A DNA stretch of 64,000 nucleotides from Escherichia coli. GTDB lineage: Bacteria; Pseudomonadota; Gammaproteobacteria; Enterobacterales; Enterobacteriaceae. Below are positions 3,319 to 3,714 of this stretch, one piece after another. A program made the translations under genes and the position numbers. The DNA is taken from assembly GCF_003334815.1 (NCBI RefSeq), contig NZ_QOWO01000022.1; one strand, 5' to 3'. The notes beneath the pieces were generated by a model. It was not told the DNA's origin, made no database searches, and worked only from the letters and a program-made list of their open reading frames with translations. Within the stretch, counting starts at the first letter, position 1. Each line of letters starts with the position of its first letter.

Positions 3319-3714
3319 ATGGGGGTAAAGAAAATCGTTATGCTGGCTATTTTAGTCAGCTTTGTGGCGGGATGTGCGCCATTACATCCTTCAAATTGCC
3401 ATAAAACTACAGCCCTGGGTAGTTGCAGTTCAGGACGTTGGGATGATCAGGATGAATGGGGGGAGCAGGCACGGGGAATCAGGGATGCAATTAATGCTAA
3501 ACTTGATGATCCGCAAAAATGGAAAAGGAAAAAATGCAGGTTGCATATGGAATTCTCCCGGGATGGCACGGCGTTAAAAATATCAACCAGTAATGGCGAT
3601 AAAGCCTATTGCGAAGCGATAAAGTCAGCAGCCCATAAAGCTAAATTCCCGGCCTTCAACAATCCGGAAGTTTATAGAGATTTTCAAAAATCCGGCTTTG
3701 ACATGCGCGGTTAG
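3319..3714 (+). CDS. Lipoprotein with TolA C-terminal (domain III)-like region
   Basis: GAGGAG RBS 7 nt before ATG 3319. Signal peptide with lipobox (MGVKKIVMLAILVSFVAGC). The C-terminal part (CRLHMEFSRDGTALKISTSNGDKAYCEAIKSAAHKAKFPAF...VYRDF) follows the pattern of TolA domain III as I recall it. Confidence 0.55.
   Translation: MGVKKIVMLAILVSFVAGCAPLHPSNCHKTTALGSCSSGRWDDQDEWGEQARGIRDAINAKLDDPQKWKRKKCRLHMEFSRDGTALKISTSNGDKAYCEAIKSAAHKAKFPAFNNPEVYRDFQKSGFDMRG

Follow-up and report, generated by a model that had tools for sequence, protein, structure and literature searches.

The 64,000-nucleotide stretch of DNA analyzed here (the window) is part of an Escherichia coli conjugative I-complex plasmid (IncK2/Z, MOBP, MPF_I). 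Between its relaxase gene nikB and trbC, the position given in a preliminary description of the stretch and borne out by the coordinates in Table 1, it carries a gene for a 131-residue lipoprotein with the C-terminal domain III of TolA (TolA III). TolA III is the shared entry point of group A colicins and filamentous phages. We propose that the lipoprotein is an outer-membrane-tethered, un-energized TolA III mimic that competes for Tol-dependent ligands, the best supported of the readings considered, to which we assign a probability of about 40%. The domain call itself is not new, as the RefSeq name is already "TolA C-terminal domain-containing protein"; within the TolA C-terminal domain family, the protein represents a mobile version with a single domain and a predicted lipid anchor. 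The analysis established an intact gene, a lipobox, the fold, the absence of TolA domains I and II, sequence conservation, mobility and a moron architecture in prophages.

A TolA domain III on a predicted lipid anchor

The Pfam TolA family PF06519 matched residues 44–125 of the window protein on model positions 10–92 of 96 (E=5.1e-14, 52.7 bits). In a phmmer search of Protein Data Bank (PDB) sequences, the significant matches were E. coli TolA III chains only (E=3e-8 to 1e-6), with 1s62, 3qdp, 2x9a and 1tol matched at E=3e-8 to 1.5e-7. Identity to E. coli TolA was 34% by BLASTP (E=4e-11), and 31–34% overall. The preliminary description had recognized the domain from a pattern of motifs, and every one of these is present: C73-R-L-H-M, D82-G-T-A-L, C98-E-A, A108-K-F-P and V118-Y-R-D-F. 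In the PDB alignment, residue i of the window protein corresponds to TolA residue i+290, so that Cys73 and Cys98, a conserved cysteine pair and putative disulfide, align to TolA Cys363 and Cys388. Among 53 diverse family members C73, G93 and C98 are invariant or almost so.

An AlphaFold2 (AF2) model calculated from the alignment of these 53 homologues gave predicted local distance difference test (pLDDT) values of >95 for residues 45–131, and the predicted secondary structure consists of α1 (46–61), β1 (72–79), β2 (85–93), α2 (95–107), α3 (116–122) and β3 (124–130). When the model was compared to the PDB with Foldseek, free TolA III (3qdp) ranked first, with a target template-modeling (TM) score of 0.92 and a root-mean-square deviation of 1.1 Å over 86 columns. 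It was followed by the TolA III chains of complexes with If1 g3p, colicin A and M13 g3p, including 2x9a_B (target TM 0.87) and 3qdr_A (0.85), while TonB C-terminal domains ranked far lower. The profile search, the pairwise PDB alignment and the fold prediction thus agree with the earlier suggestion of a lipoprotein ending in TolA III. Judged by sequence and predicted fold together, residues 46–131 are a true TolA domain III far beyond chance.

The protein belongs to the TolA C-terminal domain family but cannot be called a TolA. The full-length TolA profiles NF007065 and TIGR02794 were not reached (53.8 bits against a cut-off of 213, and 45.2 against 59.45), and the full-length match was limited to positions 273–382 of 387. 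With 131 residues compared to the 421 of TolA, the protein is without domain I, the N-terminal transmembrane helix, and without the Ala/Lys/Glu-rich helical domain II. Because both are missing, no coupling to the TolQR motor is possible. The gene also lies outside the tolQRA-tolB-pal operon, on a plasmid here and elsewhere in prophages or at scattered chromosomal sites.

The N-terminus has the layout of a lipoprotein signal (MGVKKIVMLAILVSF-VAGC), with a positive n-region, a hydrophobic core and a lipobox of the form [LVI][ASTVI][GAS]C. Among 121 close homologues, Cys19 was conserved in all 121, Gly18 in 117 and Ala17 in 112. The preliminary description had left open a secreted or an anchored copy; since the lipobox is present, the protein is predicted to be anchored and not secreted. 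According to the Lol sorting rule, the residue at position +2 decides the destination of a lipoprotein. Residue 20, at this position, is Ala in the window protein and one of A, S, T, G or V, never Asp, across the 121 homologues, from which we infer that the protein probably resides at the inner leaflet of the outer membrane.

Between the anchor and the domain lies a tether of 26 residues. Its two cysteines, Cys27 and Cys36, probably form a disulfide loop (the Cys-loop); the lipobox Cys and the four other cysteines of the protein are invariant among the 121 close homologues, and the C-x7-C-x8-C spacing is retained in family members that are only 31–50% identical. For the tether, the ratio of nonsynonymous to synonymous divergence (dN/dS) was 0.05–0.10, as low as for the folded domain. 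However, its pLDDT was <50 in two AF2 runs, one of them on the mature protein with the 122-sequence subfamily alignment, so that it is predicted to be disordered. Because the tether (the Cys-loop, then SSGRWDDQD) is strongly conserved but predicted to be disordered, it may be a linear binding motif. One candidate for such a motif was rejected. The TolB box of colicins has the form DG[ST]GWSSE with essential D, T/S, W, S and E residues (PMC2821528), and when SSGRWDDQ was placed on DGTGWSSE, anchored on the Trp, only the W was kept: colicin A (ColA) D11, T13, S16 and E18 became S37, G39, D42 and Q44. Since the essential D, T, S and E are lost, SSGRWDDQDEW was not taken as a mimic of the TolB box.

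In fold, order of elements, cysteine pair and β3 length, the window protein is like E. coli TolA III (3QDP, 1S62, 1TOL, 2X9A). It differs from TolA III in its predicted lipid anchor, which probably places it at the outer membrane, in the additional conserved Cys-loop and in the replacement of Y340, F419, K368, K379 and K396.

A mobile gene in plasmids, prophages and chromosomes

The gene was found in 1270 of 5426 complete E. coli genomes (23%), at 549 plasmid and 818 chromosomal places, the chromosomal copies at ~88% DNA identity. The plasmid allele is 99–100% identical in ~600 E. coli and Shigella plasmids, including the non-conjugative virulence plasmid pO157. In pO157 the copy (5683–6546 of the locus extracted) is still joined to 216 bp of the 3' end of nikB, so that an I-complex conjugative plasmid was the source of part of pO157. 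Homology of the plasmid insert to phage and chromosomal alleles is limited to ~3287–3719 (blastn boundaries). Because DNA similarity between alleles is confined to this interval, the moving unit is one gene with its ribosome-binding site, and the comparison indicates that the gene is a ~430-bp mobile single-gene cassette.

Outside E. coli, a scan of Genome Taxonomy Database (GTDB) species genomes identified the subfamily with the Cys-loop in 37 Enterobacterales species, of the genera Enterobacter, Leclercia, Lelliottia, Citrobacter, Klebsiella, Raoultella, Serratia, Rouxiella, Pantoea, Erwinia, Kosakonia, Cedecea, Yokenella and Pluralibacter. Synteny across the 37 species genomes was almost absent, a locus of the Klebsiella oxytoca group being the exception. 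A library search and AFDB50 returned many more Enterobacterales proteins of 119–160 residues annotated as "TolA", with a lipobox in most of those examined for one, and none of these relatives bears a functional name.

A further match has to be read separately. On the 8343-bp contig CAAFVW010000016.1, from a metagenome-assembled genome labeled 'Lachnospiraceae bacterium', a protein is 100% identical to that of the window gene, and the flanking open reading frames (ORFs) match nikA, nikB and trbC in size. There is hardly a doubt that this contig belongs to an E. coli plasmid and was mis-binned.

Both of the E. coli chromosomal neighborhoods that we examined are lambdoid prophages, with the gene between a Q-type antiterminator gene and the holin and lysozyme genes. 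A single phage record, phage mEp460_ev081, carried the gene. The prophage unit comprises a promoter-like site (TTGAGC-18-TATAAT, ~30 bp 5' of the first gene), a gene for a 142-residue lipoprotein, the 131-residue gene, and a G+C-rich hairpin with a T-run, and is situated between Q and the holin gene; its promoter and terminator are read from matches to consensus sequences and not from transcripts. Neither element accompanies the plasmid copy. The 142-residue partner (6422–6850 of the mEp460_ev081 locus) has the lipobox IIGC and is encoded directly upstream of the 131-residue allele. The domain of this partner shares 60% identity with E. coli TolA III, ends in VLDFKP and retains the equivalents of Y340, F419, K379 and K396; as a TolA mimic the partner comes much closer than the window protein does. 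The partner was found in 888 of the 5426 complete E. coli genomes, at 950 chromosomal and 2 plasmid places, and was also seen as a pseudogene (6589–6849 of another locus). Thus the two proteins are alike as short lipoproteins that combine a tether with TolA III in the same promoter-to-terminator unit; the partner differs in that it has no Cys-loop, is closer to TolA III and is almost never borne on plasmids.

Orphan copies of transducer tips also occur together in Klebsiella. In K. grimontii, a stand-alone TonB C-terminal domain protein (4469–4894 of its locus) is encoded 58 bp upstream of a homologue of the TolA-III lipoprotein (4953–5345); it scores above the cut-off of TIGR01352 and has a signal peptide without a lipobox. 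Because the two genes adjoin, orphan tips of both envelope energy transducers stand in tandem, and they are inserted between der and yfgJ/xseA, with the same arrangement in three further loci of the K. oxytoca group. Such stand-alone TonB C-terminal domain proteins, of which the window has none, share a related fold and are the orphan tip of the other transducer; they differ in family (TIGR01352) and in the absence of a lipobox. A different TolA-III lipoprotein, with the lipobox ITAC, the ending ALDFRL and 32% identity to the window protein, is present on ~250 Klebsiella plasmids, directly after the gene for a periplasmic thioredoxin-fold (CVYC) protein. The K. pneumoniae IncFIB/IncFII plasmid pAI1646P_P1 carries this pair at 7217–7765 and 7812–8246 of the locus analyzed.

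Selection on the gene was assessed by pairwise dN/dS against the phage, Enterobacter and Citrobacter alleles, which was 0.09–0.12 at synonymous divergences of 0.5–1.0. Because dN/dS is ~0.1 at such divergences, the gene is read as encoding a protein under purifying selection, not as debris. That the gene is a dead remnant of a prophage moron, carried along as a hitch-hiker, is in our view very improbable: the surrounding insert does hold gene debris and a consensus scan found no clear promoter, but the ORF is intact behind a strong Shine-Dalgarno sequence, dN/dS is low, the plasmid allele is nearly unchanged across its ~600 plasmids, and the lipobox and the other four cysteines do not vary.

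The RefSeq annotation by the Prokaryotic Genome Annotation Pipeline (PGAP) has a longer form of 143 residues, starting at 3283 (WP_001335086.1), with the electronic Gene Ontology term "bacteriocin transport". Comparison of the alleles makes the start at 3319 the better supported of the two. Homology of the non-plasmid (phage and chromosomal) alleles begins only at ~3287 by blastn; in the phage allele the corresponding codon is a GTG start, it too preceded by GAGGAG, and a TAA stands in frame seven codons before it; and the signal peptide begins at 3319.

Ligand sites and candidate functions

The TolB N-terminus, colicin N and g3p-N1 all strand-add at β3 of TolA (Ridley and Lakey, PMC4339652), and removal of the backbone NH of D418 or K420 abolishes the interactions with all three (PMC4339652). 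Compared to the TolA C-terminus APLDFKP, the sequence SGFDMRG of the window protein has the same length, with D418 corresponding to Asp128, K420 to Arg130, L417 to Phe127 and F419 to Met129. The β3 strand is conserved within the Cys-loop subfamily (the 121 homologues), and the majority consensus of the 53 diverse short homologues at this strand reads LDF, the sequence also present in TolA. Because the equivalents of D418 and K420 and the C-terminal length are kept, the architecture of the strand-addition site is predicted to survive in the window protein.

The mimic reading, which develops the decoy suggested in the preliminary description, can then be put as follows. A small lipoprotein at the inner face of the outer membrane would present, on a 26-residue Cys-loop tether, a stand-alone TolA III at the place of contact between the TolA tip and TolB-Pal, which is also where phage g3p and the translocation domains of colicins emerge. 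There it would compete with TolA for β-strand-addition ligands at its exposed β3 edge and capture them non-productively, whether the ligand is the invading agent or the N-terminus of TolB, of which such agents make use. Import that needs energized TolA would stall, and the host would tolerate group A bacteriocins or filamentous phages that enter by the Tol-dependent route. The outer-membrane location, the binding of ligands at β3 and the protective phenotype are in this scheme what we infer.

There is an engineered precedent for such an effect. Levengood-Freyermuth, Click and Webster reportedly observed in 1993 that TolA III exported to the periplasm makes cells tolerant to group A colicins, at the cost of leakiness. 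Their isolated domain was likewise uncoupled from TolQR, which offers a dominant-negative or decoy model; it was reportedly soluble, identical to that of the host and over-produced, accompanied by a leaky outer membrane, whereas the window protein is tethered and divergent. Small outer-membrane lipoproteins of mobile elements that block the entry of competitors from the periplasmic side are known as Cor (phi80, N15 and mEp phages) and Llp (T5). They are an analogy in working only, with no relationship in sequence or fold, and they act by inactivation of FhuA and do not imitate a transducer domain. The TolA-III gene would also behave like an accessory, protective gene, in that its synteny is not conserved in the 37 species and that in prophages it is part of a self-contained unit. 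Its recurrent pairing with other copies of transducer tips, in prophages and in the K. oxytoca group, supports the mimic reading, as does the further TolA-III lipoprotein of Klebsiella IncF plasmids.

Several observations weigh against it. Two side chains that measurably influence killing by colicin N are replaced, Y340 by Gln50 and F419 by Met129. The colicin A site, on the edge opposite β3, consists of TolA 375–380 and the cation-π lysines K368, K379 and K396 (PMC3365938); in the window protein it reads ALKIST and all three lysines are lost, to Glu78, Ser89 and His106, respectively, so that binding of colicin A in the known mode is unlikely. A simple decoy leaves the strongly conserved, disordered N-terminal segment unexplained. 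The pairwise dN/dS values reflect purifying selection, with no arms-race or diversifying signature. No family of the PADLOC-DB v2 defense models matched at E<=1, and the PHROG family to which both the window protein and the prophage partner belong, phrog_5772, is annotated as of unknown function. A mimic that binds the TolB N-terminus should also harm Tol-Pal function, and a cost is expected. Finally, the consensus scan of the interval between nikB and the gene gave no good sigma-70 promoter match, and a hairpin follows nikB. Any transcription of the gene from the window plasmid may depend on read-through of the nikAB operon or on a weak local promoter.

The stem of this hairpin is present in both the minimum free energy and the centroid structure of an RNA fold of 3216–3318 (z = -2.2 for the whole stretch), and the hairpin may act upstream of the gene as a weak terminator-like element in both directions. 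A consensus terminator scan left it unflagged because it has too few G-C pairs.

A more general form of the proposal is doubtful, though we would still entertain it: that orphan TolA-III copies let prophages, plasmids and genomic islets confer on their hosts tolerance to Tol-dependent, perhaps also Ton-dependent, bacteriocins and to filamentous phages, by intercepting the translocation epitope or the TolB N-terminus beneath the outer membrane, with the Cys-loop of the window protein as a second binding function.

The evidence can also be read as pointing to the host Tol-Pal system instead of defense. The protein would then bind the TolB N-terminus or another partner (CpoB) at the outer membrane and tune the dissociation of TolB from Pal, which could alter outer-membrane stability, vesiculation or the coupling to division; in prophages it could help to weaken the outer membrane late in infection. 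Such a role agrees with the retained β3 edge, with the TolB N-terminus as the one ligand conserved in every host that has the gene, with the stable chromosomal copies under purifying selection in many Enterobacterales and with the prophage position directly upstream of the holin and lysozyme genes. We nevertheless consider it unlikely. The unrelated chromosomal neighborhoods fit an accessory cassette and not a core envelope factor, the prophage unit with its own promoter-like site and terminator is like that of lysogen-expressed morons, and a block of the TolA-TolB interaction produces a costly tol phenotype (PMC4339652), with which retention by plasmids and chromosomes is hard to explain.

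It is similarly improbable, in our estimate, that the fold common to the TolA and TonB C-termini serves here as a generic strand-addition module for another target, with specificity supplied by the Cys-loop; by analogy to the action of Cor and Llp on FhuA, the protein might bind an outer-membrane receptor or porin from the periplasmic side and mask it. The sequence is clearly nearer to TolA than to TonB or other families, gene context yields no candidate target, and the prophage partner, with its 60% identity to TolA III, points to Tol ligands. What speaks for a different target is that the 26 N-terminal residues are constrained like the domain yet predicted to be disordered, as is typical of a linear binding motif; that the side chains in contact with ligands have diverged from TolA; that a TonB C-terminal domain protein stands in tandem in Klebsiella; and that the architecture is that of a small moron-encoded outer-membrane lipoprotein.

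The preliminary description had also considered interference with Tol-Pal during mating. As an accessory of I-complex conjugation, the protein would act on Tol-Pal or the envelope in mating, or protect the donor from the I-pilus phages If1 and PR64FS. The location between nikB and trbC, 103 bp 3' of the relaxase gene, whose strand it shares, invites this idea, and If1 g3p does bind TolA III (PDB 2x9a). In the IncI1 plasmid pESBL, however, nikB ends at 73493 and trbC starts at 73530, 36 bp apart and with no TolA-III gene (PMC4288162), so that the same transfer system does without it. The gene shares a low-GC insert with a receptor-gene remnant and is separated from nikB by the hairpin, the same allele is kept on the non-conjugative pO157, and the gene is found in prophages and, within E. 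coli, at more chromosomal than plasmid places. The If1 link is attractive for the window plasmid but cannot explain the wider distribution, and we give a role in conjugation little chance.

Full-text literature searches brought up no work on TolA-III lipoproteins encoded by plasmids or prophages; what looked like matches were reference-list noise or a loose remark on a prophage gene. The BFVD viral structures gave no match at E<=0.001, and the fold is therefore unrepresented among models from isolated phages.

The surrounding insert and wider significance

The features of the gene and its surroundings are collected in Table 1.

Table 1. Coordinates in the window of the TolA-III gene, its parts and the features around it.
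Feature	Position	Strand	Basis or remark
Complete coding sequence of the TolA-III lipoprotein, 131 residues + stop	3319..3714	+	ORF intact
Shine-Dalgarno sequence GAGGAG	3307..3312	+	6 nt 5' of the ATG at 3319; also in the phage allele
Signal peptide, residues 1–19 (MGVKKIVMLAILVSFVAGC)	3319..3375	+	Sequence
Lipobox VAGC (V16-A17-G18-C19), Cys19 the predicted lipid-modified residue	3364-3375	+	Sequence
N-terminal tether, residues 20–45 (APLHPSNCHKTTALGSCSSGRWDDQD), with Cys27 and Cys36	3376..3453	+	Near-invariant columns
TolA domain III fold, residues 46–131	3454..3711	+	Pfam PF06519, PDB alignment, AF2, Foldseek
β3 edge strand, residues 124–130 (KSGFDMR), TolA 414–420 (NAPLDFK)	3688..3708	+	Alignment
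nikB (relaxase)	504-3215	+	Same strand as the TolA-III gene, 103 bp upstream of it
AT-rich 12-bp hairpin (AAAAATCTTAAC / GTTAAGATTTTT)	3235..3264	+	Just 3' of the nikB stop; RNA fold
1.3-kb lower-GC insert carrying the TolA-III gene	3216..4520		GC 0.37–0.45 inside, 0.46–0.58 in the flanks
76-residue ORF annotated 'hypothetical protein', C-terminal remnant of an IreA-type TonB-dependent siderophore receptor	3812..4042	-	NF010011
trbC	4521-6824	-	Other flank of the insert
excA (exclusion gene)	22194-22847		Separate from the TolA-III gene

The only recognizable piece in the downstream part of the insert, whose DNA matches are on plasmids in 671 of 672 places, is the IreA remnant. It matched NCBIfam NF010011 at E=1.5e-24 over profile positions 613–682 of 682; it is debris in the insert and outside the functional unit.

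Other features of the window lie at some distance from the gene. A plasmid-borne phosphoethanolamine transferase (17841–19376, + strand) is distant from CptA/EptA (108 bits against a cut-off of 404) and scores far under every MCR family cut-off. Among the transfer genes are also a large autotransporter of the serine-protease type (11357–15520, - strand; the annotation is S6 family peptidase or autotransporter) and a thermonuclease, an ECs1377-family protein and a TnsA-like endonuclease gene (20334–21920). At the C-terminus of TrbA (7920–8073, - strand) there is a short tandem peptide repeat, in which ETT is repeated (GETTETTETTETTETRHP), encoded by a 9-bp DNA repeat whose copy number may vary between plasmids.

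If the mimic reading is true, a natural, mobile, un-energized TolA III would represent periplasmic defense by molecular mimicry, a layer that is missing from defense catalogues. The gene is common: it is carried by pO157 of O157:H7, by I-complex resistance and virulence plasmids of E. coli and Shigella, and by many chromosomes of Enterobacter, Citrobacter, Klebsiella and Serratia. Should it make its hosts tolerant to colicins or phages, competition in the gut would be affected, there would be consequences for colicins or filamentous phages employed as antimicrobials, and the finding would help to explain why plasmids and prophages retain the gene. Should the protein modulate Tol-Pal instead, it would provide a new handle on outer-membrane stability.

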